From IMG/VR virus record IMGVR_UViG_3300044825_001916, positions 1 through 63,439 of that record: 63,439 nt of DNA. The stretch is one strand, 5' to 3'. Position 1 is the first letter of the stretch. The number at the start of each line of letters is the position of its first letter. The notes under the pieces were generated by a model that saw nothing but the letters and a program-made list of their open reading frames with translations, was not told where the DNA came from and did not search any database. The position numbers were made by a program, and so were the translations under genes. Positions 10,271-60,740 of the stretch are shown here, in pieces. This DNA comes from a virus (taxonomy: Duplodnaviria; Caudoviricetes).

Positions 10271-13200
10271 CAGAACTCTCGCCGGTAGCCGAGGCGGAGA
10301 CCGCGCGACGGAGCCGGGCGGTCCATCAGCTCGATCGGATCCGCGCCCGGGAGCGTGTCGGGATCGCCCATCATGCGGTCATGGTAGTCGAGCGAGAGGC
10401 GCCCGCCGCTCGGGGTCGTGTAGCCGACGCCGGCGCCGGTCATGCGGCTCTGGTTGCTGCGAAAGCCGCGCCCGCTGGCGGACACGCCCTGCTGTCCGGC
10501 GGAGAAGTCGAGCGCGGCACCATCACGGCCGACCGGGACAGCGGCGCGCGCGTTGACGCCGCCGGCAACTACCCTGCCGCCGCGGATCGGGGTGAAGACC
10601 CCACCGCCGGAGGTCTCGAGGTCCGCCTCGCGGATCAGGTCCAGGAAGCGCTGCGCCTCGTAGCTCAGCTCGGGCGATACCTGGCCGCCCTCGGCGAAGC
10701 CTGGTGTGTAGAAGCTGCGCTCGGCCCCGAAGCCGTAGCGGGTCGGGTCGCCGGAGAGGGGGGAGAAGCCGCGCGTGCCGGGGGCCGGCGCGGGCTGCGG
10801 AACCGGGGTCGGGGCCGACGTAGTCTGCACCGGATCCGGGAGCAGGTTGAAGCCGACACCAGGCGGGTTCGGGTCGCTCTCGCCACCGCCGCTGTCGGGG
10901 TTAGAGGCGGGGCCCTCGCCGGGCGTGTAGCTGACAATGCTCGGCGCAACGCCCAGAGCGTTGCCGAGCTGAGATCCGAGGTAGCCCGCAGCTAGGCCGA
11001 GGCCCGGAAGGCCAGTGGCGATGCCGGCGGCGAGACCAGCAAGCCCAGCCCCGAGGCCCACGGGATTGATTGAGGCGGCCTGGCTCTGCAGCCCGAGATT
11101 ATCCGTCAAAGTGCCGATTTGAACGCCCGGCGGCGAAAGGGCGCTCTGCAGGCCAAAGCCGATCGCCTGGTTCAGGCCGATGTCGCCTCGACCATAGGCG
11201 CCGAGCGCCTCGGCCAGGCTTGGAGCGTTGGCGAACCCGGTCGGGTTCACGCCGCCGGTGTCGGCGATGCCCACGCCGAGGCCGGCCTGCTGAGCGGCGG
11301 TGGCCGTCGACATATTCGCCGCCTGAGACGTGCCTTCGGGATCCGCCGAGGACATCCCGGCAGACGCATTGGGTCCAGGGCCGCCCTGATTGCCGTAGCC
11401 GGAACTCTCGGGGCCGAAGCCGGCGCCAATGGCGTCGCTGACGGCCGCGGCGGCATCGGGACCAGCGCCAGGGCCTTCGCCGGGGCCACTGTCCTCGCTA
11501 CTGCCGCCACCCTCTTCGCCGCCACCACCGCTGTCGCCGCCGCCGCCGTCGGATCCATCTCCGCCGCCGCCATCGCCACCGCCGCCGTCGTCGAACTCAA
11601 GGAAGCCGGTGTACGGGTTCGTGGTGCCGGATCCGCCCATGGCGGCCAGCATCAGCGCCTCGCGGGGCGTGATGTGCGCGACGAGGGTGTCGTTGCCGCG
11701 GCCCATGGCGCCCAGCATCCTGGCCAGGCCACCCTGCGCCATCATAGCGGGCTCCTGCTCCGGCATCGCGGTGGCGTACCGGCGCTGGCCCTGCTGGACC
11801 ATCTGCAGGTGGCGCTCGATCGGGCTGGGCTGACCGGCGCCCGAGCCCTGCATCTCAAGGCCCGCGATCACGTCGCGCATCACGCTCGGATCATCGGCGC
11901 GGCGCTGACGTGCGGCCGGCACCGGCGGGGCAGGCGGGGGCGGGAACGGGATCGGCATGGGCGCCTGAGCGGCCGGAGCAGCGGTCTGCTGCTGGGGCGG
12001 CGGGACGGCGCCGATGCGGGGGATGGGGGGCGGCTCGGCTGGAGCCGCGGCCTGGGGCGGCTGAGCTGGCACGCCGCGGAAGTGGTCGAGCACGCGGCCA
12101 GCGAACTCGGGGCCGGTCATGTTCTCGTTGCCGGCGTTCCAGAGAACGGCGTTCCGGCCCACGATGTCAACGGCCGGGCGGTTGCCCTGCAGCAGGCTGA
12201 CGGCGCCCGTCGCGCCCTGCTGATGCGCGAGGTAGAGCGTCGGGGCGTCGACCTCGAAGCCGCGCCGACGCAGGGCGCGCGCGTTGTCGGCCGCCAGGCG
12301 GGCCGCGGCCTCGGCGGAGGCGACCTCGTCGTAGGGATCGCGCAGGCCCATGGCCGTGGCCGTGCGGGGGATGAACTGGAAGGGGCCGGCGGCGCGCGAG
12401 TTGCGGTTGAACAGGCGCGTGCCGTCGCTGCTCTCAATCGCGCGGACGCGAGCGAGGTAGCCCTCCGGCAGGTCGTACTGCTGCTCGAGGCGCGTGTAGA
12501 GCGCGGCGCGCTCCTCCGCCGTCGGGGCGGGGCGGCGGGGGCCGCCGCGAGCTTGGCCGCCAGCTGCAAGGCGCTGGGGCTGGGCGATGCCCTCGAGCGA
12601 GCGCTCGGTGGCGGTGATGCCTTCGTCGCCGGCGTAGTTCGGGTTTGCCTCGTTCGGGTCGACTTGGCCGCCCATGGCGAAGCGGGGCATGTCGTCCTCG
12701 ATGCCCTGCTCGGCGGCGAGCGCGGCGGCCTCGGGGTAGCTGACGCCGAGCGCGGCTGCCAGACCGGCGATGCCGTACTTGCGGACGATGCGGATGAGGC
12801 GCTCGTCGAAGATGACGTAGTTGCGGGTGTTCAGCTTGTCCGCATGGGCGATCGCCTCGGCCTCGTTCGCGAACTCCGCGATCGGGCGTTGCGCGGCGGC
12901 GCCTTGGTAGACCCCCCAGCTCACGCGACCGTCGGGCTGGACGATGGGCGAGACGTCGACGTTGCGAGCGCCTCGGCTGCCGGCGTCGAGGTAGCGGATG
13001 CCGGGGATGCCGGCCTCGCGGAGGGCGCGAGACGCGCTTTCCCTGCTGCCGAGGATGCCCTCGGCCGCTTCGTAAAACTCTCCGCCAGTCGCGCTTGCGG
13101 GCACTGCGCTTTCGATGCGGCCGTACTGGCGCATGCCGGGCAGCAGTTCGCTGATGTCCTGCCTGAAAACGGGCGCATCCCAGTCGAGCAGGTCGGCGGG

Positions 13201-13872
13201 CTGAACGCCCAGCTCGACTTCGTACATGCGGCCCGGGGCCAGCGCCCGAAGCCGGGCGTCGAGGTCGCCGTAGACGCGCACGAGGTCGTCGGGCGTGGCG
13301 CGCCCTTGCTCGTATGGCCCCTGACCGCGCACGAGGCGGTCGATCATCCGCATCGCCTGCGGGTCGTCCGCGACGCGGCGCGTAGCCGGGTCGGCGAGGC
13401 GCGGCATTTCGGCGAAGGCGCGGAAGCGCTCGGCGACCTCCTCCGGCGAGCGAAGGTAACCCATGTTCGTGTTCACGAAGCGGTTCACGTCGCCAGTCGC
13501 GTCGGCGGACAGCTGGTCGCGATAGGTGCGGGCGGTCGCTTCAGCCTCGCCGAAGTAGCCGCCCGAGCCATAGGCTTGGTTACCTTCGCCCGTGCCCATC
13601 TTGTCGAGCCGGAAGCGGCCGAGCGGGAAGTCCTCAAGCACGGCCGCGCCCTCTGGTACGTCGGGCAGGCGATCGGGCGCGCCAACGAGGTACTCGGTCT
13701 GGCCGCTAGGGCGCCGGATCAAACGCTCGGCGGCGAAGTCGTGCGGGCTGCCGTGGTAGGCGCGAACGCCGGTCGAGGCCTCGGGGGCGGCGCGCTCGGC
13801 GGAGCCAGTGACGGCGCGAGCCAACGCGCCGACAGCTTTCGCGCGGCTCACGCCGTCACCGCCCCGTCGCAC
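10270..13872 (-). CDS. large modular (polyvalent-type) protein: ART-like + lytic transglycosylase + GRxxD domain + beta-barrel-like C-terminus
   Basis: YHGSPHDF..GTGEGNQAYGSGGYF; AIES..AAGPFQF..YLAHQQG; ends LRLGYRREF; start may be GTG at 13851. Confidence 0.75.
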   Translation of the reverse strand: MRRGGDGVSRAKAVGALARAVTGSAERAAPEASTGVRAYHGSPHDFAAERLIRRPSGQTEYLVGAPDRLPDVPEGAAVLEDFPLGRFRLDKMGTGEGNQAYGSGGYFGEAEATARTYRDQLSADATGDVNRFVNTNMGYLRSPEEVAERFRAFAEMPRLADPATRRVADDPQAMRMIDRLVRGQGPYEQGRATPDDLVRVYGDLDARLRALAPGRMYEVELGVQPADLLDWDAPVFRQDISELLPGMRQYGRIESAVPASATGGEFYEAAEGILGSRESASRALREAGIPGIRYLDAGSRGARNVDVSPIVQPDGRVSWGVYQGAAAQRPIAEFANEAEAIAHADKLNTRNYVIFDERLIRIVRKYGIAGLAAALGVSYPEAAALAAEQGIEDDMPRFAMGGQVDPNEANPNYAGDEGITATERSLEGIAQPQRLAAGGQARGGPRRPAPTAEERAALYTRLEQQYDLPEGYLARVRAIESSDGTRLFNRNSRAAGPFQFIPRTATAMGLRDPYDEVASAEAAARLAADNARALRRRGFEVDAPTLYLAHQQGATGAVSLLQGNRPAVDIVGRNAVLWNAGNENMTGPEFAGRVLDHFRGVPAQPPQAAAPAEPPPIPRIGAVPPPQQQTAAPAAQAPMPIPFPPPPAPPVPAARQRRADDPSVMRDVIAGLEMQGSGAGQPSPIERHLQMVQQGQRRYATAMPEQEPAMMAQGGLARMLGAMGRGNDTLVAHITPREALMLAAMGGSGTTNPYTGFLEFDDGGGGDGGGGDGSDGGGGDSGGGGEEGGGSSEDSGPGEGPGAGPDAAAAVSDAIGAGFGPESSGYGNQGGPGPNASAGMSSADPEGTSQAANMSTATAAQQAGLGVGIADTGGVNPTGFANAPSLAEALGAYGRGDIGLNQAIGFGLQSALSPPGVQIGTLTDNLGLQSQAASINPVGLGAGLAGLAAGIATGLPGLGLAAGYLGSQLGNALGVAPSIVSYTPGEGPASNPDSGGGESDPNPPGVGFNLLPDPVQTTSAPTPVPQPAPAPGTRGFSPLSGDPTRYGFGAERSFYTPGFAEGGQVSPELSYEAQRFLDLIREADLETSGGGVFTPIRGGRVVAGGVNARAAVPVGRDGAALDFSAGQQGVSASGRGFRSNQSRMTGAGVGYTTPSGGRLSLDYHDRMMGDPDTLPGADPIELMDRPAPSRGLRLGYRREF

Positions 13873-13926: not shown

Positions 13927-16503
13927 TCATGCCGCATAGGGGTTGGCCCGCCTCCTGCTAGGCTGCCAGTATTCGTCGATTTCGCGCGGGTTGGCAACCG
14001 AAACCCCCATCTTGTCCACGATCACCCGCAGCGCCTGGGTCGAGCTGTCGACGAGGTCGTCGTGGGCGATGCTCTTCTCGCCGGAGAAGCTGCAGAGCTG
14101 CTCAATGAGGGGATCGGCCCAGGATCGGGGCTGGCCGGGGCGCTTGTCGCTCTCGACGACCCAGACCATGCCGTTGGCGAAGAGGTGGCTGACCATGTGC
14201 AGGCGCTCGAGCTTGCTGGCGCGGCCGGGGTTGTAGGCCACCGCCTGGAGGCCTTCGCGGGCGAGCATCTGGCGCAGGCTGATGCCGCTGCCCTTGTCCT
14301 CGATCACGCACAGGTCGGGCTTCCGGCCCGAGGTGCCGAGCAGGGGCGCGCCGTAGATCGGGGCGATCAGGGGCTTGTCGCGGTCGCCGTACTGCACCGC
14401 CATCTCGCGCTTCGTGCGGTCGATCAGGTCGGGCATGCCGAGGCGTTCCTGCCAGCAGTCGAGCAGGAGGACGCCGTCCTGGCGGTCTTCGCGGAAGAGG
14501 CCCCAGACGCTGCACCCGGTGTAGTCGGCGTCGCCGGTCTTTGAGTTGCGCGTGGCCTCGGTGAAGGCGGTGTCGAGCGAGAGCACGATCAGGTCGAAGA
14601 CCGGCAGCGGCTTGTCGGCCGGCCAGAGCTGGATCCAGGAGCGCTTGATGATGCCCTGATCGGCCGGGTCGAGCACCTCGGCGTGGATCTCCTGCCGGCC
14701 GAGGGCGGTGCCCTCGTACTGCAGGATCTGCTCGCGGAAGGTGGGCGCCAGGTTGGCGAGGTTGGCGTAGGTCGAGGCGCGGGAGACGGTGACGTCCTTG
14801 CCTTCGCGCTTCAGCAGCCGGGTGATGATGGGCTTCGGCTTGGGCGTGGTGGAGATCACGATGCGCGGCCGATCGCCCAGGCGCATGCCAAACATGAGCA
14901 TGTCGAAGGCTTCCTCGGCCCGCTGCCAGGCCGCCAGCTCGTCGAGCCATCCGCCGTGGAACTGAGGGCCGCGGAAGCGCTCGGGGTTCTCGGCGGAGAT
15001 GCCCTTGATGAGGCTGCCGTTCTTGAGGCGCAGCTCGACGTCGGTCTTGTTGTACAGGGCGCCGCTGGAGGTGGGCTCGATCAGCTCGTGCGGGATGACG
15101 GCGAGCAGGCCGCTCTCGCCCTCGAAGCAGGTGCCGACAAGGTCGCCGTAGGTCGGTGCGGAGACGAGCCACCGGGTGCCGGGCATGGACCACGCCCACC
15201 AGCCGATGGTCTCGGCGGAGGTGCGGGTGTTGTGGGTCGGGATCATCGCCCGGCCGCAGAGGTAGAGGCGAGACGGGCTGTCGACCGTGACGCAGCGCAC
15301 GGGCACGCTGGGTACGGGCTCGACGGCGACGATGTATCGACGGCGCTGGCGGTCGGCCTGGCTGCCGTCTCCGGCCTTGATGCGGGCGAGCTTGCGGGGC
15401 AGGCGGAAGACGGGCGCGTAGGGCGTGAAGTTGACGCGGTACTTCGGACCGCAGTCGCGACCGCTTAGGGTCGCGCGGGCTTCGCGCAGCGTCGCCTTCA
15501 TGCCGAGGCCCGACACGAGGTCGAAGACGGCGTCAGCGATCGGGCGCTTGGTCGTGCAGAACTCGGCGATGCCGCGGTCGGAGACGTAGCCGTCGGTGTC
15601 CATGAGCCCCTGCAGTAGGGCAAGGCGCTGTTCGGCGGAGGCGCGCAGGTACGAGGCGGGAACGTGCTTGTTGCGCAGAACGCCCAGCTTACTCAGCCGG
15701 TGGGTAAGCGACGCCGGGTTCGGTTGGCAGCCGCTCTTGCCGGGCACCCACAACGCTTTCGCGGGGGAGATGGCGTAAGTGCGGGATGCGTTTCCGGTCT
15801 CGCGCGACTTTCCGATCGTCTCGCCGCAGCGTTTGATCTCCTCAAGCACCTCGGGGTCGGCGGTGGTGATTTCGCCGCAGGCGGAGCTGCCGTCGCCCAG
15901 CCAGGCCCCCAGGACGTAGGGGTGAATGGGCAGTTGCTGTTCTGGAAGCTCCAAGGGGAGGCAGACGCGCACCGCGTGATTGATCTCGCGCCCGTCCATG
16001 AGCGACGCGCGGATCTCGTCGGTGGTGAACGTGTTGCGATGGGAGGCGGGCTGGCACTGCGGCTTTCGCGGGTCGCCGGTGCCCGCGCAGCGGCCGGCGG
16101 CTTTGCGCGCCTTGCGCGTCTCGGTGCGCCACAGGTGCTCACCGTCGGCTATGATCTCAGATCCGTCGCTGAAGGTGACGCGGTAACACGGCCGATCGAC
16201 CATGACCGGGTGCGCCTCGATGACGCGGCAGGGGCGGCCTTGCTCGTCGAACAGGGTATCTCCGGCCTTGACCTCGCCCATGGTAGTCCAGCCGCCCAGC
16301 GTTGGCAGGGGGGTGTCGAGCGCGAGCGCCTTGCCGGCGCCGCGGCCTGCGAGGAGCAGCCAGAGCGACCACCAGTCGCCGGCGGGGACGAGCTGGTGGT
16401 CGAGGGCCTTGTCCATCCACTCGGCGTGCCAGAGGAGGCCTCGGGCGACGTCGTCGGGGAGCTTGGCGATGAGTTCGATTTCGGCGGGCGTCAGCGCGCT
16501 CAT
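13927..16503 (-). CDS. terL: terminase large subunit, intein-containing
   Basis: AGRGAGK/T Walker A, RGPQFHGGWLDE Walker B, STTPKP, SLDTAF, IEDKGSG, HDDLVDS. Confidence 0.95.
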   Translation of the reverse strand: MSALTPAEIELIAKLPDDVARGLLWHAEWMDKALDHQLVPAGDWWSLWLLLAGRGAGKALALDTPLPTLGGWTTMGEVKAGDTLFDEQGRPCRVIEAHPVMVDRPCYRVTFSDGSEIIADGEHLWRTETRKARKAAGRCAGTGDPRKPQCQPASHRNTFTTDEIRASLMDGREINHAVRVCLPLELPEQQLPIHPYVLGAWLGDGSSACGEITTADPEVLEEIKRCGETIGKSRETGNASRTYAISPAKALWVPGKSGCQPNPASLTHRLSKLGVLRNKHVPASYLRASAEQRLALLQGLMDTDGYVSDRGIAEFCTTKRPIADAVFDLVSGLGMKATLREARATLSGRDCGPKYRVNFTPYAPVFRLPRKLARIKAGDGSQADRQRRRYIVAVEPVPSVPVRCVTVDSPSRLYLCGRAMIPTHNTRTSAETIGWWAWSMPGTRWLVSAPTYGDLVGTCFEGESGLLAVIPHELIEPTSSGALYNKTDVELRLKNGSLIKGISAENPERFRGPQFHGGWLDELAAWQRAEEAFDMLMFGMRLGDRPRIVISTTPKPKPIITRLLKREGKDVTVSRASTYANLANLAPTFREQILQYEGTALGRQEIHAEVLDPADQGIIKRSWIQLWPADKPLPVFDLIVLSLDTAFTEATRNSKTGDADYTGCSVWGLFREDRQDGVLLLDCWQERLGMPDLIDRTKREMAVQYGDRDKPLIAPIYGAPLLGTSGRKPDLCVIEDKGSGISLRQMLAREGLQAVAYNPGRASKLERLHMVSHLFANGMVWVVESDKRPGQPRSWADPLIEQLCSFSGEKSIAHDDLVDSSTQALRVIVDKMGVSVANPREIDEYWQPSRRRANPYAA
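15229..16329 (-). mobile_element. class 3 (Ala1, WCT) intein with LAGLIDADG homing endonuclease, 367 aa
   Basis: Starts ALALDTP after GK; ADGEHLW; LGAWLGDG and LQGLMDTDG; VRCVTV; IPTHN/T. Confidence 0.93.
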
Positions 16504-16985
16504 GTCGGCACCTGGGCCTCAAAGAGCGAGCGGTTGATCACGTCGGTCTTGTCGACGCGCGGCCTGGACGGGGTATCCCATGATCGCCCCTTGACCTCGG
16601 CGATGAAGCGCCAGCCGGCGGCCCGAAGCGTGGCGCCGGTCTCGTCGGCCCGGATGTAGGTGCCGATGCGGCGATGGCCGAGGGCGAAGGCGGCGCGGGC
16701 GGCGGCCCCGTAGAGAAACGAGCAGGCGTTGCGCGTGCCGTCGCTGCAGAGGCGCGTGACCTCAAGGGTCAGGCCATCATCGCGAGCGCGGGAGACGGGG
16801 CGACCGACGATGCAGACGCCGACGATGCGCCCATCGGCGACGGCGCCGATTGAGAACTTGTGGCCCACCACGGGCCGGTGGTGCCTGTGGTGCCGGGAGA
16901 CGAAGTCGTTGGCCTCCTCCAGCGTCAGGGGGACGGGCGCGAGCTTCGGACCCCGGCGGCGGTCGGCTTCAGTTGGGCTGCCCAT
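16500..16985 (-). CDS. XF1762-family / Mom-like GNAT-fold protein
   Basis: EANDFV.RHHRHH.P..GHKFSIG...GRPVSR..DDG.TLEVTRLC.DGT.NACSFLY. Confidence 0.7.
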   Translation of the reverse strand: MGSPTEADRRRGPKLAPVPLTLEEANDFVSRHHRHHRPVVGHKFSIGAVADGRIVGVCIVGRPVSRARDDGLTLEVTRLCSDGTRNACSFLYGAAARAAFALGHRRIGTYIRADETGATLRAAGWRFIAEVKGRSWDTPSRPRVDKTDVINRSLFEAQVPT

Positions 16986-34430: not shown

Positions 34431-34696
34431 GCAGAAAGGAAACAAGCGCCATGTCGCATGGACCTTGGCAGCCTATTGAGACGTTCCCGCAAACATGCGA
34501 GCCCGTCCTGTGGACGGACGGGTTTCGCATGCGCGTCGCCAACTGGACGCTTGAGATGTTCGATCATCCCAACGGAACGATAGTCTGTTCCGCCGACATG
34601 GAAGAGCTTGAAGACGGAATTGCCTGGATGGCAATTCCTATCCCGCCTTCGCCGTCCGAGCGGTGGCCAACCCGCCCTTGCGCTTCGTCTTCTTGA
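34427..34696 (+). CDS. DUF551-like protein
   Basis: WQPIETFP...AWMAIP.PP; overlaps the convergent gene. Confidence 0.55.
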   Translation: MSRKETSAMSHGPWQPIETFPQTCEPVLWTDGFRMRVANWTLEMFDHPNGTIVCSADMEELEDGIAWMAIPIPPSPSERWPTRPCASSS

Positions 34697-37600
34697 CCTT
34701 GCCGCCCTCGGCGTAGAGGTCGATCTCGCCGCGCAGGAACTTGTTGTAGGTCACGTCGATTGGCTCACCGCGAATGCGGGCGGTGACGCCGATGCGCTTC
34801 TGCAGAGCTTGGAGATACGGGATAGGCTCCGACTTCAGGCCGGTGTCCTTACCGCCGCCGACCCATGCAGCAGACTGGGCCTGGGCGGGCTGCATCTTTC
34901 GACCCTTGGCGACCTTCTGCCCCATGCTCTCCAGGTAGGCGTATTCGCCTGGCAGGAGCGCGCCCTCTTCGCCGAAGCTCTTCTTGGCGCGATCCATGCC
35001 CACGATGTCGCGGATGTAGTGCGTGTCGGAGGTGATGGGGCGCCAGTTGCCGAGCAGGTTCTGCTGGTAGCTGATCGGCTTCGGGTTGCTCACCGGATCC
35101 ATGTCGCCGCCAAGGAACTCGCGGGTGCGCTGCGCGTGCTGCACCTGCGCCTTGGCCCCGTACGGCGGGGGGAGGTCGCCGGCCAGCGTCTGAACCGTCT
35201 TTCCCGTGCGCGGGTCGGAGACCTGCACGACCTGCGGCAGGGGCTCACCGCGGAGTGCGCGGTTCAAGTAGTGCGAGGCCGTGCGGATGTTGCTCTCAAT
35301 CGGATTGGTCATTGAGGTTGAGGCGTTCACCAGCGTCCAGAGGCGGAAGCGCTCGTCGCCTTCGGTCGGACCATACATCGCGCGAAAGTCATCGCGCAGC
35401 TGCTGCAGGTTATACCAGCCCTGGTTCTGCTCGCCGCCCGCTTCAATGTAGCGGCGCAGACGCGCGGGGCCCTCGCGCTCAAGGCCTTCAAGGCGCTCGG
35501 TGACCTTCGGCGCGGCACGGGGGAGGTCGAACTGAGGTACATCCGGCATGCGGTTCAGGGTCGCCGGAGAGAGGTCGTAAAGAACGCCCCTGCCGCCCAC
35601 CTCGGCGTCGTAAGACGTCGCGGCGCGGTTTACCTCGCGGGCGATGCGCGTGCCCTCGGCCAACTTGCCAGAGGCCTCTGCCGCCTCCTGGGAGGGCAGG
35701 CGCATGCCGGGCAGCTTGCCGGCGAACAGCGCCTCGGTCGTCGGCACCTGCTTGGTCTTGCCCTTGCTGTCGGTGAGCGTGACCGTCTTGCCGTGGCGCG
35801 AGATCGCCTCGCCGATGACCTCGCGGTCGGCCAGCTTCAGGCGGGTCGCGGCGTCGATTGCTTCATCGGACTGGCTTGCCAGCCCCTCGCGCACGAGCGG
35901 CGATGCGCCCCCGCCGGTGAGGCGGAGAGTGTCGTACAGCTCGCCGAGCTGCTTATAGGTGAGATCGCCGGATGTGCGAGCCGCGCGATTGATATCTGCG
36001 GCCGATGCCATGCCTGGCGGGGAAATACCGGACAGGGCAGGAGGAGCGTCAGCTGCGCGAGCGGCCGACAAGCCGCCCCTAGTGGCCTCGCTGCCCTCCG
36101 GCACCAGGCGCTCAGCGAGGGCCCGCGCCACCTTCATCACCGCGCCACCGCGGCTGTAGCCGCCGATCGCCGCAGCGCGGCGGGCGCCCTCGGGGGACAT
36201 GCGCTTGCCCATCTCCTCGATGATCGCCTCAATGATCGGGCTCATCTTCGGTTCCTTCACTTGGCCGCCTTTCGCGAAGCCGGGAGGTCCAGGGGGCGGG
36301 AGGAGCGGAGTGCTGGGAGGCGCTCCGATCGTGGGCTCGATACGGGGGGCGGCCGGCCTGGCGGGGGGCGCGCCAGCCCCCACCGCCTGCGACATGGTGC
36401 GCAGGGCGCCCATGATAGCGCCGCCATTCGGGCCGCTCAGGAGCTTGTTGATGCGATCAGGATCGCTCGACGACAGGATCTCGCCGACCTCGCGCATCAC
36501 GTTCTCGTTCACGCGGGTGCGGCCGCGCGCGAGCAGGCCGCCCAGGAGCGCCGTGCCGCCGGTCGTCAGCGGGTCGCCGGACGTGAAGATCCCGACGCCT
36601 GCGCCCGCACCTGCGCCAATGCTCATGTCGCGCAGCTGCTGGGCGGTCGTTGAGTTGCCCTGGGTCGCCGACCGCAGGCGGTTCATGATGCCCTCGCGGC
36701 GAACGAAAGCCTCAAGCTGGCGCAGCTCGTCGGGCGGCATGATGACTTCGAGCTTGCGTCGGTTGGCGCCGTCGAACAGCTTCACCACGTCGCGGCTGTC
36801 GGGCGCATTGCGCACTGTGTTCGCCAGCTCGGCCGCAAAGCCTCGGCGGAACAGTTCCCGCTCCGGCTCGCTCATGGAACGGAAAGCTTTCTGTGTGTCG
36901 GTCAGCTGGATCGCGCGGTTCTGGCGGAAGAAGGTCTGGCCAGCCTCAAGCGCGTCTTCCGCGCCAAAGAACTGACGGGCCGTGCCGCGCGCCTTGCCGA
37001 ACTCCGGCACCGCCGCGTCGAGTTCCTGATTTAGGCGGTTGCGAAGCGCTCTCAGATCGCTCTGCCGAGAGCTGCCAGGCGCCGCGGCCTCGGCCGCCTC
37101 GCGCAGGTTCCGCTGCACCTGATCCCAGAACTGCAGGTTCGGACGGACCTGCCCCCCATCGGGGGTCGTGTTCCAGACAATGCGACCCTGATCGTCGAAG
37201 CTGAAGGGATTGCGAATGACGATGTTGCCTTCAAGCGCAGCACGGTCTGCGGCTTTCGCAGGAACATCGCGGATCGCGGCCTGCACAGATGGCGACTGCG
37301 CAAGCTGCTCCAGCTCAGGGGTCCACAGGTTGGCATTTTCGCCAACCTGATAAGCGGCGCGATAGAGCGGAGCGTTCACACGGCTCGCTGTGGCGCGCAG
37401 GGTGTCGTTGGTCGAAGTCATGTTCAGATTGCCGCCGAACAGGTCTTCGATGAAGTCGCCAAAGCGGGCCTTCTGCTCGGTGTAGCGAGGATCGGTGGAC
37501 GCGCGCAGGCGGGCGGAGGCGTCTTCCGACACGTTGCCGGCGGCTCGCGCCAAGCGAAGCGTGCCGGTGGCGCCGAGGTCGCCCACCACGATGTCCTGGC

Positions 37601-38369
37601 CGGCAGCGCGAGCTGCGGCGATGTCGGCCGGCGAGAGCACGTCCTCGACGCCGCGGGCACGGTCGGCCTCGATCGTGCGACGCACGACGCGCTCGGCGAA
37701 CCTCTGCGGAGCGACGATGCGCTGCCCAGCGTTGAAGACCCCCATGCCAACTGCAGGGATCGCCCCGAAGGCTGCACCGAGCGCGCCCTCGGTTGCGGCG
37801 CCCATAAGGCGATCTTCCGCTCCCTCACCACGGCCGAAGCCGCTGGCCGCGCCAGCACCGCCACCAGCGGCGATGGCGGCCTTCGCTCCTCGGCCAACCA
37901 GACCGAGCGGCATCACCGCAGAGCCAGCAATGTTCGCGCCGAGGTAGGTGTTCGGGAACTGCTCTTCGGCCGCGCGGTCGATCGCGCGCTCGACATCACG
38001 AGCGGGCGCGTAGGCTTCCGTCGCGCGGCTGCCGAAGGTCTGAGGGAATGCGCGTTCGGCCGCCATGCGGGCGCCCCCGACATTCGCGGCGAGCGCGCCG
38101 AGCATGGGAACTCGCTCGGCCACACCGCGAACGGCTTCCGGGAGGCCCGCGACGCCGGCCGCGCGCAGGCCCGCGAGTTCGTCGTTGAAGTTGGCCTGGA
38201 AGCCGGCCCTCGCCGCCTGAGCGGCCGCCTCCATCTGGCTCATCTGCGGAGCCGTCGCTCGGCCGCTCGCGGCCTCCTGCATGACGCGGTTGATCGTCTC
38301 CGGCGACGTGCCCGCCGGAAAGTTGACGACGAGACCGTTCGGGCCGTTGACGCGGATCTGCTCAGCCAT
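34638..38369 (-). CDS. large putative ejected (DNA-transfer) protein with C-terminal HhH-GPD glycosylase-like module
   Basis: Helical Ala/Gly-rich body, GNSTTAQQ; FAKGG, YSRGG, YAEGG motifs; K-x17-DTH motif. Confidence 0.7.
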   Translation of the reverse strand: MAEQIRVNGPNGLVVNFPAGTSPETINRVMQEAASGRATAPQMSQMEAAAQAARAGFQANFNDELAGLRAAGVAGLPEAVRGVAERVPMLGALAANVGGARMAAERAFPQTFGSRATEAYAPARDVERAIDRAAEEQFPNTYLGANIAGSAVMPLGLVGRGAKAAIAAGGGAGAASGFGRGEGAEDRLMGAATEGALGAAFGAIPAVGMGVFNAGQRIVAPQRFAERVVRRTIEADRARGVEDVLSPADIAAARAAGQDIVVGDLGATGTLRLARAAGNVSEDASARLRASTDPRYTEQKARFGDFIEDLFGGNLNMTSTNDTLRATASRVNAPLYRAAYQVGENANLWTPELEQLAQSPSVQAAIRDVPAKAADRAALEGNIVIRNPFSFDDQGRIVWNTTPDGGQVRPNLQFWDQVQRNLREAAEAAAPGSSRQSDLRALRNRLNQELDAAVPEFGKARGTARQFFGAEDALEAGQTFFRQNRAIQLTDTQKAFRSMSEPERELFRRGFAAELANTVRNAPDSRDVVKLFDGANRRKLEVIMPPDELRQLEAFVRREGIMNRLRSATQGNSTTAQQLRDMSIGAGAGAGVGIFTSGDPLTTGGTALLGGLLARGRTRVNENVMREVGEILSSSDPDRINKLLSGPNGGAIMGALRTMSQAVGAGAPPARPAAPRIEPTIGAPPSTPLLPPPGPPGFAKGGQVKEPKMSPIIEAIIEEMGKRMSPEGARRAAAIGGYSRGGAVMKVARALAERLVPEGSEATRGGLSAARAADAPPALSGISPPGMASAADINRAARTSGDLTYKQLGELYDTLRLTGGGASPLVREGLASQSDEAIDAATRLKLADREVIGEAISRHGKTVTLTDSKGKTKQVPTTEALFAGKLPGMRLPSQEAAEASGKLAEGTRIAREVNRAATSYDAEVGGRGVLYDLSPATLNRMPDVPQFDLPRAAPKVTERLEGLEREGPARLRRYIEAGGEQNQGWYNLQQLRDDFRAMYGPTEGDERFRLWTLVNASTSMTNPIESNIRTASHYLNRALRGEPLPQVVQVSDPRTGKTVQTLAGDLPPPYGAKAQVQHAQRTREFLGGDMDPVSNPKPISYQQNLLGNWRPITSDTHYIRDIVGMDRAKKSFGEEGALLPGEYAYLESMGQKVAKGRKMQPAQAQSAAWVGGGKDTGLKSEPIPYLQALQKRIGVTARIRGEPIDVTYNKFLRGEIDLYAEGGKVKKTKRKGGLATARTAKAG

Positions 38370-38370: not shown

Positions 38371-40119
38371 TCAGGGGGCTCCCGGAGACCAAGTGAACGA
38401 TCCGTCGGCGTTGGGCGTCAGGCCCCCTCCGCCGGCGCCTCGCTGCCGAGCCTGCTCTGCGGCAAAGCGTTCCTGAGCTTCGTTGAAGCGATCAAACGGG
38501 CTGGGAAGCTGATCAAAGCGTCGCAGCGCTTCCTGGCGAGTGATTTCGCCACTCTGCGCCTGCATCGCAATACGCCCGCGCGCGATCTGGTATTCGGCGA
38601 CCGACTTGAGGGTGTCGGAGACCATGCGCCGACCGTCGGGCGTCGACATCAGACGAGGCAGAGAGGCCTCGAAGTTGCGAGCGTCGAAGTCGGACACGGC
38701 GCCCGGCATGCCCTGGCGCTGAGCAGGGATCAGCTGCTTCAGCAGGGCCGAGGCAACCTCGTACTGCGTTGCCTGCGGGCCAAGGCCGAGGCGCGCCGCC
38801 TGCTGAGCGAACCAGCCGGGGATGCCGCTCGGCAAGTCGCGCATGACCGTTTCCAGCTGCTGCAGGCGACCCAGAGCTTGCGTGGCTTCGCCGGCGCCAG
38901 TCGCCAATTCCTGGAACGAGCGAGCCTGCTGCTCGGCAGTGCTCTCCGCGAAGCGACGGTTGGCGGCGTTCGCGGCGTCTTCGTTCTGAACCTGCCTTTC
39001 AGCTCGCTCTCGGAAGAGGGTGATTTCTGCTTGACCCTCCGGGCTTTCGCGCACGATCCGACGCGCGTTCTCCACCAGCTGACGCCCCTGCGGGCCAGCA
39101 TAGCGGCTGGGGTCTGCGGCGGCGGCGGCCAGCAGGCGCTGAGCGGCCGCAACCGTGGGGTCGCTTGAGATGGCGCCGCCGGCGATGGGCTCGGCTGCGG
39201 GAGGCTGCGCGGCTGAAGCAGGCGGGGCGGCTGGGGCGGCCGGAGCGGGGGCGGTAGGGGCAGCAGAAGCGGGAGCAGCTGCGGCAGGCGCTGCAGCAGA
39301 GGCGGCGGCAGGGCGACCGCTCTGAGCCGAACTCCATGCGGCCTCAAGATCCGCCAGGGCGCGGTCGAACTCAGCGGACAGAGCCTGATTTCCGGGATCG
39401 GCCTGCACTCGAGCCTCAAGCTCCCGGGCGCGCGCAATCGCGGACTGGACCTGGGGGGAGGCCTCGGGGTTCACCGTAGCAGCTGCGGCAGGGGCGGCGG
39501 CAGGGGTGGCCGCGGCGGCCGGAGCCGGCAGAGGCGTCTGCGTGACCTGCGGCTGCGGACCAATCGGGGAAGCCGCCGGCATCGGAGGCTGAGCTGCACC
39601 CGGCACCGTGAGCTGGGCGCGCGTCTGCGGAACGCCAGGCTGCCCCTGGCCGCCCTGGAGCAATCCGAGATCTGCCAGCGCGCCCTGGGAGGCCGCAAGC
39701 TGCGTCGGGAACTGCAGGGCCTGCCCAGTCAGCGCCATCCGCTGCTGCGTCGCCTGCAGGCCAAGGTTCGCCGTCGCGGCCTGGAGCTGCTGGATCCTCA
39801 TCGCGCGGTCCAGCTCGCTCTGGCGCTGCTGCTGAAGGGCGCCCGCATATCCTTCCGCACCAGCCGCCAGGCTCTCGCCGAAGCCGCCCGCACGCGTCGG
39901 GCGCAGCAGGCCGGAGGCGAGCTGTAGCAGGGGGCTCGGGCCGGTGCCGCGCTGGCTGTTCAGGAACTCCATCAGCGCGCTGTTCGCGGCCCGCCCCTGC
40001 TCAAGGCTCTGCTGGATGTTCTCCTGCGCCTGGCGATACTGGGTGGGGAAATCGCTCGCCTGCTGTTCGATGAATTGGCGATACGCAGCGAGGCCGCCAG
40101 CCGGATCGTTCTCAGCCAT
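38371..40119 (-). CDS. putative ejected/internal virion protein
   Basis: Gln/Ala-rich, GGFGESL, Pro/Ala linker, GAVSDFD motif. Confidence 0.65.
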   Translation of the reverse strand: MAENDPAGGLAAYRQFIEQQASDFPTQYRQAQENIQQSLEQGRAANSALMEFLNSQRGTGPSPLLQLASGLLRPTRAGGFGESLAAGAEGYAGALQQQRQSELDRAMRIQQLQAATANLGLQATQQRMALTGQALQFPTQLAASQGALADLGLLQGGQGQPGVPQTRAQLTVPGAAQPPMPAASPIGPQPQVTQTPLPAPAAAATPAAAPAAAATVNPEASPQVQSAIARARELEARVQADPGNQALSAEFDRALADLEAAWSSAQSGRPAAASAAAPAAAAPASAAPTAPAPAAPAAPPASAAQPPAAEPIAGGAISSDPTVAAAQRLLAAAAADPSRYAGPQGRQLVENARRIVRESPEGQAEITLFRERAERQVQNEDAANAANRRFAESTAEQQARSFQELATGAGEATQALGRLQQLETVMRDLPSGIPGWFAQQAARLGLGPQATQYEVASALLKQLIPAQRQGMPGAVSDFDARNFEASLPRLMSTPDGRRMVSDTLKSVAEYQIARGRIAMQAQSGEITRQEALRRFDQLPSPFDRFNEAQERFAAEQARQRGAGGGGLTPNADGSFTWSPGAP

Positions 40120-40135: not shown

Positions 40136-41221
40136 TCAGCTGCCGCCCAGGGCGCGCGCGAGTGTCAGGCCGCCCAGGATCTGAGCGAGGCCCGAGGGCT
40201 GGTAGGTCGACGCAGGGCCCGTCGAGGCCGTGTTCGTCGTCTGCGAGTAGGGCTGACCGCGCACGAGGTTCGACAGGAAGCCGAGCTGCGTCTTCGGGTA
40301 GTCCCGCTGCGCCACGAAGTCCTGGTAGGCCACGTCCAGGTTCCGCTGGTCGAGGGCCTGCTGCTGCTGGCCGATCGCTTCAAGCGCCGCCGTGTCGGTG
40401 TAGCCCATCTGCTGGCCGATGCGGCCAAGCGCTCCGAGCTGCTGCCCAGCAGCGATGAGGTTCTGGTTGCTGACGTTCTGCAGGTTGCCCTGAACCTGGC
40501 CGAGCTGGCCGAGGTTCTGCTGCTCCTGGGTGCCGAGGCCGCCCAGAACGCGGCCAATCTCAGCGCGACGCTTCATGTCTTCCTGGGCCGCCGTCAGCGC
40601 GCCCTGGTAGCCCTTGTTCAGCAGGTCGCCCTGTGCAGCCAGGGCGCTTTCTTGGACATCTCGAAGGGCCTGGCCGGTGGCCTCCTGCATGCGGCTGGAG
40701 CCGAACTGGCCCGCCCGCACGAAGGTGTCGCTCACCTGCGGCATCAGCTTCTCGCGCAGCTGCCGGGCCGCCAGGTCGCCGATGCGGTTCACGACGGCGT
40801 CCTGATAGGGGCTCATGTATTCGCCGACCATGCTCGGGGCGGTAGCGCCGGCGGAGCTGAGATACGGCATCGCAGCGCCGGTCGGGGACATGCCGATCGC
40901 CTGGGTCAGCGTCGGGTTGGCCACCTGAAAGCCGGAGGTCTGCGTCGCCTGGTTGATGGCGCCGATGCCCTGGTTGATCGTCGGCGTGAAGGCGCCCTGC
41001 TGAGCGCGAGTGGCCGCGAAGGCCTCGCGCTGGGCGGGGCTGAAGTCGGCGAGGCGCGGGGCGCCGTAGGTCTGGTAGGGCTCAGCCGCGACGGCGTTGC
41101 CCTTGGCCAGCAGGCCCTGCGTGTAGTCGGACAGCCACTGCGGGATGTTCGCGGTGGTCGTGCCGTAGGTGTTGACCGAAGGCGGAGCCTTGCCTTGGAA
41201 CAGGAAGTCGGTGACGCTCAT
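40136..41221 (-). CDS. putative ejected/internal virion protein
   Basis: YMSPY...AGQFGSSR...GQQQQ...Q.DYP; Gln/Gly-rich. Confidence 0.7.
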   Translation of the reverse strand: MSVTDFLFQGKAPPSVNTYGTTTANIPQWLSDYTQGLLAKGNAVAAEPYQTYGAPRLADFSPAQREAFAATRAQQGAFTPTINQGIGAINQATQTSGFQVANPTLTQAIGMSPTGAAMPYLSSAGATAPSMVGEYMSPYQDAVVNRIGDLAARQLREKLMPQVSDTFVRAGQFGSSRMQEATGQALRDVQESALAAQGDLLNKGYQGALTAAQEDMKRRAEIGRVLGGLGTQEQQNLGQLGQVQGNLQNVSNQNLIAAGQQLGALGRIGQQMGYTDTAALEAIGQQQQALDQRNLDVAYQDFVAQRDYPKTQLGFLSNLVRGQPYSQTTNTASTGPASTYQPSGLAQILGGLTLARALGGS

Positions 41222-49342: not shown

Positions 49343-50107
49343 CTAGCTCAGAAGCTGGCCGGTAAACGAACCGTTGCCGGGCTCAAACTGAGGGGCGCCT
49401 GTAAATACGTTAACATCGACGTAATCGTTTGCATTCATCCGCAATACAACAACTCCGGCTTTCCAAGTGTATCCAAAGGAAACACCAACAATTTCAACTC
49501 TGCACGCCGTTGCCCCATTAAGGCGAATGTCAAATCCATATGCGCTGCCTTGACCGCCATTAGCAGTGAACAAATAATTTCCCGTCACAGGGGCGGTAAA
49601 CCTGCCTGTGCTGCTGTTATAGTGGCTGCCAATGTTATGATAGATGTTGTCAAACAACACTACGCCCGTCACGCTATTGGCGTTGCTCCTGCTCACCCGA
49701 AAAGAGGGCTGAGATGATATCGTGAACTGACCATTGGTGTTGATGCGGGCGCGTTCGCCGTTGTTGACATAAAATGTCAACGGGTGGTTCGTCACCGTCC
49801 CAACCGCACCGAGCGTGTTGAGTTGGTCGGTCCACATACCCTGCGTGACCGAAGAAGTCCTTAGCAGGATGTCGGCGTATTGGGTTGTGGACTGAACACC
49901 AATTCTCGCGCCCGGCGTCGTCGTGCCGATGCCTAGGTTCCCACTGGCATCTAGGCGCATGACCTCCGTGCCGCCTTCGGCAAAGGCGATGGTGTCAGCC
50001 GCAGGGAAAAACATCCCGGTGTTGCCGTCAGTGCCCTGCACGGCGGGCGTTGCGGCAGAGCCGTCCGTGCCAGAGATGCCGGTGGAGCCGTTGATGATGA
50101 CGGGCAT
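49343..50107 (-). CDS. tail fibre protein with C1q-like C-terminal domain
   Basis: GNLGIGTTTP repeat; FD...NIGSHY...TGRFTAPV.G.Y.F...ANDYV...F.G.L. Confidence 0.8.
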   Translation of the reverse strand: MPVIINGSTGISGTDGSAATPAVQGTDGNTGMFFPAADTIAFAEGGTEVMRLDASGNLGIGTTTPGARIGVQSTTQYADILLRTSSVTQGMWTDQLNTLGAVGTVTNHPLTFYVNNGERARINTNGQFTISSQPSFRVSRSNANSVTGVVLFDNIYHNIGSHYNSSTGRFTAPVTGNYLFTANGGQGSAYGFDIRLNGATACRVEIVGVSFGYTWKAGVVVLRMNANDYVDVNVFTGAPQFEPGNGSFTGQLLS

Positions 50108-50570: not shown

Positions 50571-51095
50571 TCAGCGGAAAACGGCGACACAGACAATGGT
50601 CGGGTCATATGAGGCTCCGGTCCCCCTTGATATCGTATTTATTGGTCCGGTATTTCCGGCGGAAAAATTGCCGTCAAAAAATATGAGGCCGCCATCGACG
50701 CCAAAGTTTGACCTAGTGGTGGCAATCGTTGAGTAGTTTGCGTCCGACATTGCTGTGGTAAAATTCACTGTGTAAGCGCCAGTTCCGCCGTCCGTGATGC
50801 TGCTGACGTTGCCGCTGCCCCGGATCGCCACCGTGCCGGTGCCGTTGAAGTTCACCCACGCCCGGCAGCCGTAAGCTGTGGCGACGGAGCCGTAGCCGGA
50901 GTTAAACGACAGGTTGCCAGAGCCGTCCCATGCAGGCGCACCAGTCGAAAGCATCGCAGGCGTCACAGCAGCCGTGCTGCCCGTGGTGACGACAGTGCCG
51001 GTGTTCGCCGGGATGGTCGCGGTGAAGGTGCTGGCCGTGCTGGGCACGTCGAGGGTGACGGAGCCGCCACCGGAGGAGTTGAGCTTCAGGGGCAT
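50571..51095 (-). CDS. short tail fibre protein
   Basis: RAWVNFNG......SGNVSSITD.GTG.Y.VNF. Confidence 0.8.
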   Translation of the reverse strand: MPLKLNSSGGGSVTLDVPSTASTFTATIPANTGTVVTTGSTAAVTPAMLSTGAPAWDGSGNLSFNSGYGSVATAYGCRAWVNFNGTGTVAIRGSGNVSSITDGGTGAYTVNFTTAMSDANYSTIATTRSNFGVDGGLIFFDGNFSAGNTGPINTISRGTGASYDPTIVCVAVFR

Positions 51096-51625
51096 ACCGG
51101 GCCATCCTTAAAGACGGTCTGAGTTCCGTTGGCGATCCGTTTGATCGTGGTTGGGTTACATCCCACGATGGCCGCAAGGTCGTATGAAGATAGCCTAAGA
51201 GCCGACTTCATTTCCATGAGTTCGCTGGCCTCTTCAGCGGTGAAGAGAGCGCGTCGCTGACCAGCGTTAACCCTCATGCGATGGTAGTGATCCTGCGTGG
51301 GCGCTGTCCACAATCCGCTCTCGACGGAGTGAAGCATGTTCTGTTTTGCAGACACCCACTCAAGGTTGCTGGCAGCGTTGTTCTCTTTGTCGCCGTCTTT
51401 GTGGTTGACCTGATCGGCGCCGTCCGGTCGATTGCAGAAGCTCTCTGCCACAAGGCGATGAACCAGTCGCTGCACCTGAACGCCGTTGTGTCGGAGGGTT
51501 ACCTGCGGATACCCGTGCCCGGTGGAACCGCCCGTCATGCGACGCCGCTTGCCGTTCTTGCAGCTAACAACATAGCCGTCAGAATGGACAAGGTAGTCGG
51601 GGAAATCTCGGATATGCTTTTCCAT
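51086..51625 (-). CDS. free-standing HNH homing endonuclease with C-terminal HTH
   Basis: GYPQV.L...VHRLVAE.F...VNHKDG.K.NN...NLEWV...N..H. Confidence 0.92.
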   Translation of the reverse strand: MEKHIRDFPDYLVHSDGYVVSCKNGKRRRMTGGSTGHGYPQVTLRHNGVQVQRLVHRLVAESFCNRPDGADQVNHKDGDKENNAASNLEWVSAKQNMLHSVESGLWTAPTQDHYHRMRVNAGQRRALFTAEEASELMEMKSALRLSSYDLAAIVGCNPTTIKRIANGTQTVFKDGPVCP

Positions 51626-51807
51626 TAGGTCACAGTCCAAACGGAACCCGAACCAACCGTCACGACCACCCCGGAGGCGACCGTCACCGGCCCCGCCGTC
51701 ATGGCGTTGTAGTTGGTGGGGATCGTGTAGTTCGCCGACACGATAGTCGGGTTCACGAAGAACGTGGCCGCCACTGGCCCAACGGGCTGGTTGCCGAGAT
51801 AAATCAT
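51625..51807 (-). CDS. small fibre-connector protein
   Basis: NYTI...NAM.AGPVT...G..VTV..GS.W. Confidence 0.7.
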   Translation of the reverse strand: MIYLGNQPVGPVAATFFVNPTIVSANYTIPTNYNAMTAGPVTVASGVVVTVGSGSVWTVT

Positions 51808-58661: not shown

Positions 58662-59576
58662 TCAGACGCCCGGAGTACCGAACACCGTGCGCGGGTCGGT
58701 CCAACCGAACGCGTAACGCTCGGTGGCCTTGTAGCGCATGCTGTCGGTCTCGAAGTCGCCTTCCATGCTCTTCTCAAGCGAGCGGCGCATCAGCAGCTTC
58801 AGGCCTTCCGGCGCGTCCGTCTGCACCCACCAGGCGGTGGTGGAGGTCAGACGCGACAGGTTGGCCTGGCCGCCGGACAGCAGCCCCATGGAGTTCACGG
58901 GGTTGATGTCGTTGAAGTTCGTGCCGGCACGCAGCACGCTCTTCAGCAGCACTTCCGCCTGGAAGACGTTCGACGGCGACACCACCAGCTTCGTCGGCTG
59001 AAGCCGGATGCGCTTGCCGTTGTTGTCGACGGCGTTGCGGATCTGGACCAGCAGCTGCTCGAGCGACGTCTGCGAGAGGTTCGCAGCGGTCGTGAGCTGG
59101 TTGCTGAACGTGCCGTTCACGATCGGGTGCGCGTTGGACACCAGCGACACGCCGTCGCCGCCAACGAACGCGCCGTTGAACGCGCGGTTCAGGATGTTCG
59201 CGCCCAGCGTTTCCTTGGTCTCGATCAGCGACTGAGCAAGGTGGCGGGCATAGGTCTGCCCGATCTTGATGTGGTCGCCGTCTTCGACCAGCACCTTCGT
59301 CAGCGCGAAGGCGAGGCCGTAGACCTTGTAGAGGTAGCGCTGGATGAACAGCACACCGCCCGACTGGTAGGTGACCGGGGTGCCGTCCGGCAGCTCAGGA
59401 GCCGCGCCGAAGCCGTACAGGACCGGCTCTTCATGGTAGTTGCGCGGCGTGCCGCGGCTCTCCTTGAAGACCTGCTTGTACTCATCAGCGCGCTGCTCGT
59501 AGATGCCATCGAACTCTTCCGAGATGATGGGCTCAACGATCGACCGAAACTGGGTCGAGTTCATCGGCATTGCCAT
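58662..59576 (-). CDS. major capsid protein (second copy)
   Basis: Identical protein to 2867-3781. Confidence 0.85.
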   Translation of the reverse strand: MAMPMNSTQFRSIVEPIISEEFDGIYEQRADEYKQVFKESRGTPRNYHEEPVLYGFGAAPELPDGTPVTYQSGGVLFIQRYLYKVYGLAFALTKVLVEDGDHIKIGQTYARHLAQSLIETKETLGANILNRAFNGAFVGGDGVSLVSNAHPIVNGTFSNQLTTAANLSQTSLEQLLVQIRNAVDNNGKRIRLQPTKLVVSPSNVFQAEVLLKSVLRAGTNFNDINPVNSMGLLSGGQANLSRLTSTTAWWVQTDAPEGLKLLMRRSLEKSMEGDFETDSMRYKATERYAFGWTDPRTVFGTPGV

Positions 59577-59590
59577 GGCTCAGGCCCTCC

Positions 59591-60145
59591 TCAGAACGGG
59601 TTCACGGCAGCCGCGAACTGGTGCTTCGCGATCTTGGCCTGAACGATGGTGAAAGCGTCACCGGGCACGTTGTTGATGTCGGTGGCGATGTTGAGGACCG
59701 CGAGCTGCCCCGCCGTGCTGGCGGAGGTCGTCGCGTTCATCGTCGCTGTGGACATGCCGAGCCCGTTGCTCGCGGTGATGTTCGTGAAGTCGGCCTGCTG
59801 GCCGATTTCCGAAATCGTCACCGGGCCGTCCGCCTGGATCTCGTAGACGATCTCCGGGTCAGACGTGAAGTACGCGACGATGTCGGTCGCGACGGTGTTC
59901 GCGGGCCACACGTTCGAGACCACGCGACGGCCAGTGACCGGCGTGTACTCGCAGCCCTGGAACGAACCCACGAAGGCGTCGCCGATGGCGGCGGCCTGGA
60001 GGGTGCCGTCGGTGCCGATCTTCACAGGCTGGCCCGTGAAGATGTTCGCAGCATAAGCGGAGGCGATAGTGCCGGCCTCCTGACGGATCACCCCCGAGGG
60101 GTGCTTCGCCGGGCGGAGCCCGAACGGTGCGTTAACCGAAGACAT
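59591..60145 (-). CDS. capsid-associated protein (second copy)
   Basis: Identical to 3796-4350. Confidence 0.65.
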   Translation of the reverse strand: MSSVNAPFGLRPAKHPSGVIRQEAGTIASAYAANIFTGQPVKIGTDGTLQAAAIGDAFVGSFQGCEYTPVTGRRVVSNVWPANTVATDIVAYFTSDPEIVYEIQADGPVTISEIGQQADFTNITASNGLGMSTATMNATTSASTAGQLAVLNIATDINNVPGDAFTIVQAKIAKHQFAAAVNPF

Positions 60146-60189
60146 CCTATGTCTCTTTCACGCAAGGGGTTGGGGAACCCCACGCTTCT

Positions 60190-60735
60190 CTAGGTGAAGA
60201 TGGGCGTGGGAACGTGGCGCCGCATGTCCGCCGTACCATCGCCTTCCATCACGTTCGACCCCATCGCGCGCGCCTGCTCGCGGATCAGGTCGGCCGTCTC
60301 GGCCAGCTTGCCCTCTTCCTCCATTGGCATCTTGTGATGCGCCTCGGCCATGTACCGCTGGTACAGGGACGTGGGCAGCTTGAATGCCAGCATCTCGTTG
60401 ACACCGATGAAGCCCTGATATTCGCCCGTCTTCAGAGTGGCATAATCCCAGCCGGGCACGTCCTTCGGGGTGATCGGCTCATATCCGAGACGGATGCGAG
60501 CCTGGATGGTGTCGCGAGGGTTGGTGGTTGTGAGCCAGCAAACGTGATAGCCGGGGATCTCCGGCAGATCGGGCAGCGCAGACTGCCAGAACGACTGGCG
60601 GAACATGGACACGCGGTCGTTGTCCGACAGCTCTCGGTCCTGCGTCACAGCGCGATCCTGCATCGCGCGGTCAGACTTGTCCGAGCCCATGCTCTTCTTC
60701 AGGCGTTCGTCGATCGAGTTGGTCATGTCACTCAC
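60190..60735 (-). CDS. head-cluster protein (second copy)
   Basis: Identical to 4395-4940. Confidence 0.75.
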   Translation of the reverse strand: MSDMTNSIDERLKKSMGSDKSDRAMQDRAVTQDRELSDNDRVSMFRQSFWQSALPDLPEIPGYHVCWLTTTNPRDTIQARIRLGYEPITPKDVPGWDYATLKTGEYQGFIGVNEMLAFKLPTSLYQRYMAEAHHKMPMEEEGKLAETADLIREQARAMGSNVMEGDGTADMRRHVPTPIFT

Positions 60736-60740
60736 TCCTA

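Follow-up and report, generated by a model that had tools for sequence, protein, structure and literature searches.

The 63,439-base virus record IMGVR_UViG_3300044825_001916 from IMG/VR (hereinafter the window, that is, the whole stretch of DNA that was analysed) encodes a protein of 1243 amino acids (aa) that ends in a swappable cassette containing a module of the phage family DUF7178. In our reading, DUF7178 belongs to the HhH-GPD superfamily of DNA glycosylases as a hitherto unrecognised branch, nearest in shape to the Ogg2 8-oxoguanine (8-oxoG) glycosylase/lyases, and it appears highly probable that the module is a true relative of the HhH-GPD fold. The fuller interpretation, namely, that the protein travels inside the capsid, is ejected and acts as a DNA glycosylase and/or apurinic/apyrimidinic (AP) lyase dependent on K1097 and D1115, is the one towards which we lean, with modest confidence.

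Pfam matches DUF7178 (PF23802) to the window protein below threshold, the score being 12.5, 14.0 or 14.9 bits for different scanned pieces against a cut-off of 27, and the match covers the Lys/Asp motif described below. The Pfam model spans 193 positions of a unit that, in the phmmer matches, is about 290 aa long and can be located at any position within proteins of 147–2052 aa. An exhaustive phmmer search with aa 900–1243 recovered 845 representatives at E ≤ 1e-3, including 485 at E ≤ 1e-10 and 80 at E ≤ 1e-30; one relative, P0028, combines 46.8 bits against the Pfam DUF7178 model with a phmmer E-value of 1.1e-40 to the module of the window. For fold prediction, 45 sequences were aligned (aa 900–1243 of the window protein, P0003 and 43 of the 47 matches of at most 470 aa, with the fragments P0022, P0074, P0115 and P0137 omitted), and the Pfam scan detected DUF7178 in 42 of these. 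Among the best 46 by rank of the 63 listed matches longer than 600 aa, 34 contain DUF7178 at E ≤ 0.001, mostly with more than 27 bits. The neighbors of the module in the protein atlas are solely DUF7178-type viral clusters (scores 0.85–0.88, below the 0.9 line), and those in BFVD are uncharacterised viral proteins only; a pattern-based scan of genome contigs for close relatives of the module gave 15 pattern matches, none of which was confirmed. Judging from these sequence comparisons, aa ~930–1225 are a divergent member of the DUF7178 family.

The AlphaFold2 model of the module is all-alpha (predicted local distance difference test, 91.5; predicted template modelling score, 0.87). It consists of two lobes around a helix-hairpin-helix, as in the HhH-GPD superfamily, and shares with the superfamily a Gly/Pro-rich loop followed by a helix-capping Asp, residue D216 of the model, which directly precedes helix 217–224. 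The HhH-GPD motif is presented as the hallmark of the superfamily in an excerpt of PMC3397491. The HhH-GPD fold that the original prediction proposed is reflected in the Foldseek ranking of the PDB structures, with the Ogg2 protein Tm1821 in first place (E 0.18, probability 0.97) and AGOG and MjOgg within the nine best, but none of the structures reached E ≤ 0.001. An alternative is that the module is an N-glycosidase of a free or signalling nucleotide, comparable to Qng1, which acts on queuosine monophosphate, and is injected as a counter to nucleotide-based immunity. This appears improbable given that the Ogg2 DNA enzymes are superior by about 3 Z units and match over the whole length, and that the D-x-H beside the Asp is common to EndoIII.

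Conservation in the family is concentrated at a putative Lys-Asp dyad. In an alignment of 139 sequences (the query and 138 domain segments of 200–480 aa from the 150 listed phmmer matches, 12 having been dropped), only 4 of the 344 columns are invariant, namely, K1097, G1107, N1108 and D1115, all within the 25-residue motif KPISYQQNLLGNWRPITSDTHYIRD (aa 1097–1121, positions 35007–35081); in addition, H1117 is found in 137 and P1111 in 133 of the 139 sequences. The Lys and the Asp are likewise invariant in the 45-sequence alignment. The original prediction, which placed an EndoIII-like glycosylase between YSRGG and YAEGG, had singled out these two residues, and its reading of the sequence was accurate throughout: a script located both borders, the quoted strings (among them, ASTS at aa 1016–1019 and QPAQAQSAAWV at aa 1160–1170) and the two codons (AAG for K1097 at 35079–35081 and GAC for D1115 at 35025–35027), and the E. 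coli EndoIII string that it quoted agrees with nth of NC_000913.3. The spacing of 18 residues from the Lys to the Asp equals that from K120 to D138 of EndoIII; this spacing is trivial by itself, and the pair stands out beyond chance because it is conserved in all 139 sequences.

In the model, the Lys is the second residue of helix 197–207. A Lys near the start of a helix and an Asp that caps the next helix is the arrangement of bifunctional HhH-GPD enzymes. K1097 is accordingly placed, in the prediction, where these glycosylases hold the Schiff-base Lys, and D1115 where the catalytic Asp sits, and we infer that the two dyads are homologous. When PDB sequences were searched, neither the module nor the 45-sequence profile retrieved any at E ≤ 10. 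Convergent packing of helices, with DUF7178 unrelated to glycosylases and performing another function, is in our assessment quite improbable.

Comparison of the family profile with EndoIII using hhalign produced one match, always in the register K1097 = K120 and D1115 = D138. When greedily extended, this alignment (65–279 to 3–188) approximates the structural alignment to 2abk (76–279 to 10–189). The profile alignment is consistent with the dyad reading and is statistically not significant. E. coli MutY, tried as an hhalign template, gave an unrelated 9-residue match elsewhere, which is noise.

The hhalign match to E. coli EndoIII alone is not significant (score 21, P 0.029); in favor of the dyad, the score grew with the diversity of the template, to which 12 diverse nth genes from plasmid records were added, and the match to the resulting 13 EndoIII sequences is still weak (score 29, P 0.0025, probability 11.7%), to be compared with a score of 14.7 (P 0.32) for a reversed EndoIII template as control. 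The inclusion of 120 extra EndoIII homologues had no effect because all of these are at least 86% identical, so that the effective number of sequences in the template (Neff) stayed at 1.0. The module lacks two marks of the superfamily. The canonical hairpin, h-P-G-h-G, is absent before the second helix, the corresponding sequence being GGDMDPVSNPK in the window and GGLxPLxNPKP in the family consensus. In addition, the Pfam family PF00730 (HhH-GPD) is not among the families detected at E ≤ 10 in the 45 members, and has no match in the whole record, though all 14 control genomes match. With respect to the hairpin, there is a precedent: as described in an excerpt of PMC3397491, AGOG combines an atypical hairpin with a Lys140 and an Asp172 that overlay their counterparts in OGG1 and OGG2, which shows that such a hairpin is compatible with a working dyad.

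The lack of the canonical hairpin glycines also favors the possibility that the HhH-GPD fold is kept in a non-enzymatic capacity, the module being a non-specific DNA binder that might, for instance, keep hold of the leading genome end or guide it during ejection. The same excerpt of PMC3397491 describes binding of HhH motifs to the DNA backbone irrespective of sequence, and the C-terminal tail of the protein is strongly basic, with 8 K/R against 1 D/E among the final 25 residues (from Y1219). However, the sole invariant residues of the 139 sequences are the putative dyad and residues of the intervening loop, which is an active-site pattern unneeded for backbone binding, and we consider a purely DNA-binding module unlikely.

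The module is attached to a conserved carrier, the all-alpha body of aa 1–690, for which 40 homologues of 683–2176 aa were found, the window's own protein included. The original prediction had raised the question whether homologous ejection proteins lack or swap the module, and both are the case: by local hmmsearch and clustering, 6 of the 40 carry the DUF7178 cassette, 16 carry one of three other cassettes, and 18 have none. The cassette-less relatives are distant, 688–879 aa long, and end after the body, whereas the 16 with other cassettes have bodies 59–93% identical and total lengths of 1111–1494 aa. These alternative cassettes, of about 557 aa (6 proteins), 700 aa (7 proteins) and 402 aa (3 proteins), are joined at the same junction (within P0152–P0171). 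All 22 long forms share the FAKGGQV-type motif followed, 40 residues on, by YSRGGAV, past which the tails form 4 unrelated clusters of 6, 6, 7 and 3 proteins; similarity between the cassettes ends 30–47 residues past YSRGG. The counterpart of the cassette by itself is a free-standing protein of 502 aa, P0003 (69% identical), which begins at the FAKG motif. The module is exchangeable cargo. The three alternative cassettes match no Pfam family and are candidate injected effectors. For the carrier body itself, a tblastn search of cultured phages gave a single distant match, and no structural neighbor was identified.

The pattern [FY]-x-x-G-G-x-V occurs three times in the 1243-aa protein, twice ahead of the junction with the cassette and a third time where the module ends; it might mark a site of cleavage or serve as a tag for packaging or for portal binding. 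A related pattern is found 175 times across the 150 listed DUF7178 matches, compared to 51.8 in shuffled sequences. Among 130 domains with a complete end, 101 contain GG at most 25 residues from that end (typically YA[KDSR]GGSV), and most of the proteins ending in this fashion terminate 2–20 residues further on. Separately, the small segment that opens the cassette (aa 788–820; pattern INRAA..S..(L/M)T...L..LY..LGLTG) resembles, by eye, a two-helix DNA-binding element of the SAP/HeH type.

In other phages, the module is encoded among virion genes. In Microcystis phage MJing1 and Roseobacter phage CRP-3, the protein containing it is encoded between the portal and the capsid. In four of nine IMG/VR loci (L010, L014, L015 and L016), the portal gene is immediately followed by that of the module, and in two more (L009 and L017), the two are one gene apart, so that the module gene is adjacent or one away in six of the nine. 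L013 has the gene just upstream of the terminase-portal pair, L018 has it behind an ejection-like protein (of 1230 aa), an arrangement also seen in the window, and L012 is truncated on the upstream side. At every locus examined, the gene belongs to the virion gene block, a placement that, in terms of gene order only, supports packaging. The domains that accompany DUF7178 in the 46 scanned long matches include LPD23 (8 proteins), cell-wall hydrolases (7 proteins; SLT, Hydrolase_2 and Phage_lysozyme2), ART-PolyVal (3 proteins, one of these above the cut-off), PBECR5 (2 proteins), NUDIX (1 protein) and a DUF6782 metallopeptidase (1 protein). It is conceivable, if somewhat doubtful, that DUF7178 at large, with its 845 clusters at 50% identity that are almost all viral, consists of capsid-packed, Ogg2-like bifunctional glycosylase/AP-lyases that are injected with the genome as exchangeable cargo and act at DNA entry.

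For the protein of the window, the reading that we favor can be outlined as follows. The cassette, of about 500 aa and ending in the module, is connected to the 690-aa carrier by a linker rich in Pro together with two [FY]xxGGxV motifs, and the resulting carrier-cassette protein would be packed in the capsid and exit with the DNA. In the cell, the module would flip out and excise a base and/or cut abasic sites via an imine formed at K1097. The target might be the incoming phage genome, in which case the enzyme would provide first-aid repair of damage gathered outside the cell, or else host DNA; instead of repair, the reaction might serve the excision of a host-specific or defence-related base.

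The original prediction also considered a link of the module to Mom-like and ART-like genes. The link to Mom is not supported. The Mom family phrog_1384 was found in none of 19 related viral records, by the same search that recovers the window's copy at E 1e-38, and 6 of these 19 records are 98–100% complete genomes carrying the module; hence, the module is not tied to Mom-type modification. An ART-like gene was not detected in the window at Pfam E ≤ 0.001, and ART-PolyVal is present in some module-bearing proteins of other phages. The absence of the Mom-like gene from the related records bears, in addition, on the possibility that the module is a base-modifying transferase derived from the glycosylase fold, similar to the 5-PmdU glycinyltransferase gp46 of phage PaMx11. 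The match to that enzyme is far weaker than the match to glycosylases, and hypermodification acts on replicating DNA, so that its use inside a virion is hard to see; this alternative is very improbable.

Table 1 Features of the 1243-aa protein and of selected genes in the window
Feature	Positions	Strand	Remarks
1243-aa open reading frame (P0001)	34638..38369	minus	codon-position GC 0.70/0.53/0.82
N-terminal body, aa 1-690	36300..38369	minus	all-alpha; phrog_5880; conserved carrier
Motif FAKGGQV, aa 698-704	36258..36278	minus	after Pro-rich linker; F-A-[KR]-G-G-x-V in 22/22 long relatives
Motif YSRGGAV, aa 738-744	36138..36158	minus	cassette junction; YSRGG itself aa 738-742, 36144-36158
Swappable C-terminal cassette, aa 745-1243	34641..36137	minus	
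Small conserved segment opening the cassette, aa 788-820	35910..36008	minus	ASAADINRAARTSGDLTYKQLGELYDTLRLTGG; kept in P0003, P0005, P0008, P0014
DUF7178-like domain, aa ~930-1225	34695..35582	minus	phmmer matches cover query positions ~30-325
Part superposing on whole Ogg2 enzymes, aa 962-1185	34815..35486	minus	model residues 63-286
Putative active-site stretch	35007..35087	minus	NPK(1097)-x9-GN-x6-D(1115)-T-H
Motif YAEGGKV, aa 1219-1225	34695..34715	minus	closes DUF7178-like domain; YAEGG itself aa 1219-1223, 34701-34715
Basic C-terminal tail, aa 1226-1243	34641..34694	minus	
582-aa protein	38371..40119	minus	no family match; immediately upstream of 1243-aa gene
361-aa DNA-ejection-protein-like gene	40136..41221	minus	phrog_4287 'DNA ejection protein' E 1e-13; two genes upstream of 1243-aa gene
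Mom-like DNA modification protein	16503-16985	minus	phrog_1384 E 2.4e-37; directly upstream of terminase

The gene for the 1243-aa protein closes the minus-strand operon of virion structural genes and converges on replication genes encoded on the plus strand (AAA_24, DUF669, a Cas4-type exonuclease and an SNF2 helicase). Beyond the upstream genes for the 582-aa and 361-aa proteins (Table 1) are those for a protein of 420 aa, for two virion structural proteins, for a GH108 lysozyme and for tail-fibre-like proteins; elsewhere, the record encodes the large terminase, portal and capsid along with the Mom-like protein. The G+C content of the window is 66%, and megablast of 20 kb of it against cultured phages produced no match at the DNA level.

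The record contains an exact direct repeat of 4606 bases (3039–7644 = 58834–63439) that reaches its right end. The first 3038 bases lie outside the repeat (identity at the corresponding offset about 25%), and the capsid gene has a different 3' end in each of the two copies. Given this layout, the record is not a simple circular permutation and may join two variants. The 858-aa large terminase (13930–16503, minus strand) has a LAGLIDADG_3 match at aa 291–342, ahead of Terminase_6N (430–625) and Terminase_6C (643–825), which may represent an intein or a homing-endonuclease insertion. Between the terminase and the portal is a gene for a 1200-aa protein (10273–13872, minus strand) with a transglycosylase-like segment at aa ~418–594 (phrog_22520, phrog_2013 and phrog_4067), which may be a second virion-borne multidomain protein. 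Amid the tail-fibre-like genes, a C1q-domain protein (E 1.4e-12; 49346–50107) and an HNH endonuclease (51089–51640) are encoded, both on the minus strand.

Among known systems, the structures nearest to the module are those of Ogg2 (MjOgg, 3KNT/3FHF; SsOgg, 3FHG; Tm1821, 3N0U), EndoIII being more distant. The identity to Ogg2 is 9–16%, with no match at the sequence level, and the module differs from Ogg2 in having about 60 extra residues before and about 60 after the aligned core, in a hairpin devoid of G-h-G, and in being part of a putative virion protein as opposed to a cellular repair enzyme. Furthermore, the chain-ending Lys of Ogg2 is absent: past model residue 286 (aa 1185, SEPIPY), which approximately corresponds to the Ogg2 terminus (residue 207), the module has another 58 residues. 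In Ogg2, according to the excerpt of PMC3397491, this strictly conserved C-terminal Lys, whose carboxylate reads N7-H of 8-oxoG, is required for 8-oxoG excision, and the AP-lyase activity survives truncation. The extension of the chain past the Ogg2 terminus is the reason why specificity for 8-oxoG is not inferable for the module.

EndoIII (Nth) shares with the module the Lys-to-Asp spacing, the D-T-H after the loop and the sole hhalign match on this stretch, but its four-Cys loop that binds [4Fe-4S] is absent; the 1243-aa protein contains no cysteine and therefore no Fe-S cluster. In the predicted model, the module is Ogg2-like rather than EndoIII-like. The original interpretation as an EndoIII-like glycosylase is partly supported: the predicted HhH-GPD-type fold and, weakly, the register of Lys and Asp agree with it, whereas the affinity to EndoIII itself is replaced by that to Ogg2.

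The polyvalent proteins of phages and conjugative elements are large, virion-associated chains of swappable effector domains (Iyer et al. 2017, PMC5512222). The co-domains of the module belong to the same vocabulary, and module genes are portal-adjacent in other phages; in contrast, the carrier in the window consists of one body of 690 aa, located where the ejection-protein block ends, and is not a portal-adjacent protein of the MuF type. The word 'glycosylase' does not occur in the main text of PMC5512222; the supplements, which were outside that check, could name the domain otherwise. Literature searches on the name DUF7178 and for DNA glycosylases together with phage ejection proteins found no paper, and those pairing polyvalent proteins with glycosylase, or HhH-GPD with virion or ejection, gave nothing relevant among the matches listed.

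Proteins known to be delivered by phages include RNA polymerases, ADP-ribosyltransferases, nucleases and wall hydrolases. If the proposed function is correct, DNA base excision would join this repertoire, ejected or polyvalent proteins would, with the module and its relatives, include base-excision enzymes for the first time, and a widespread phage domain of unknown function would gain a testable chemistry. Acting at DNA entry, such enzymes would repair environmentally damaged phage DNA prior to transcription or excise a host-specific or defence-related base, and the questions for the first seconds of infection would concern the identity of the excised base and the origin of the DNA from which it is taken. 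With four cassettes exchanged at a single conserved junction, the carrier offers a natural system for the study of how phages load and swap injected effectors. T4 endonuclease V (DenV) has a fold unrelated to that of the module and is produced after infection rather than borne by the particle. It is, as outlined in an excerpt of PMC7824862, a phage bifunctional glycosylase/lyase, able both to remove a damaged base and to cut the backbone. The module of the window protein would represent a known superfamily, HhH-GPD, in a new delivery context.
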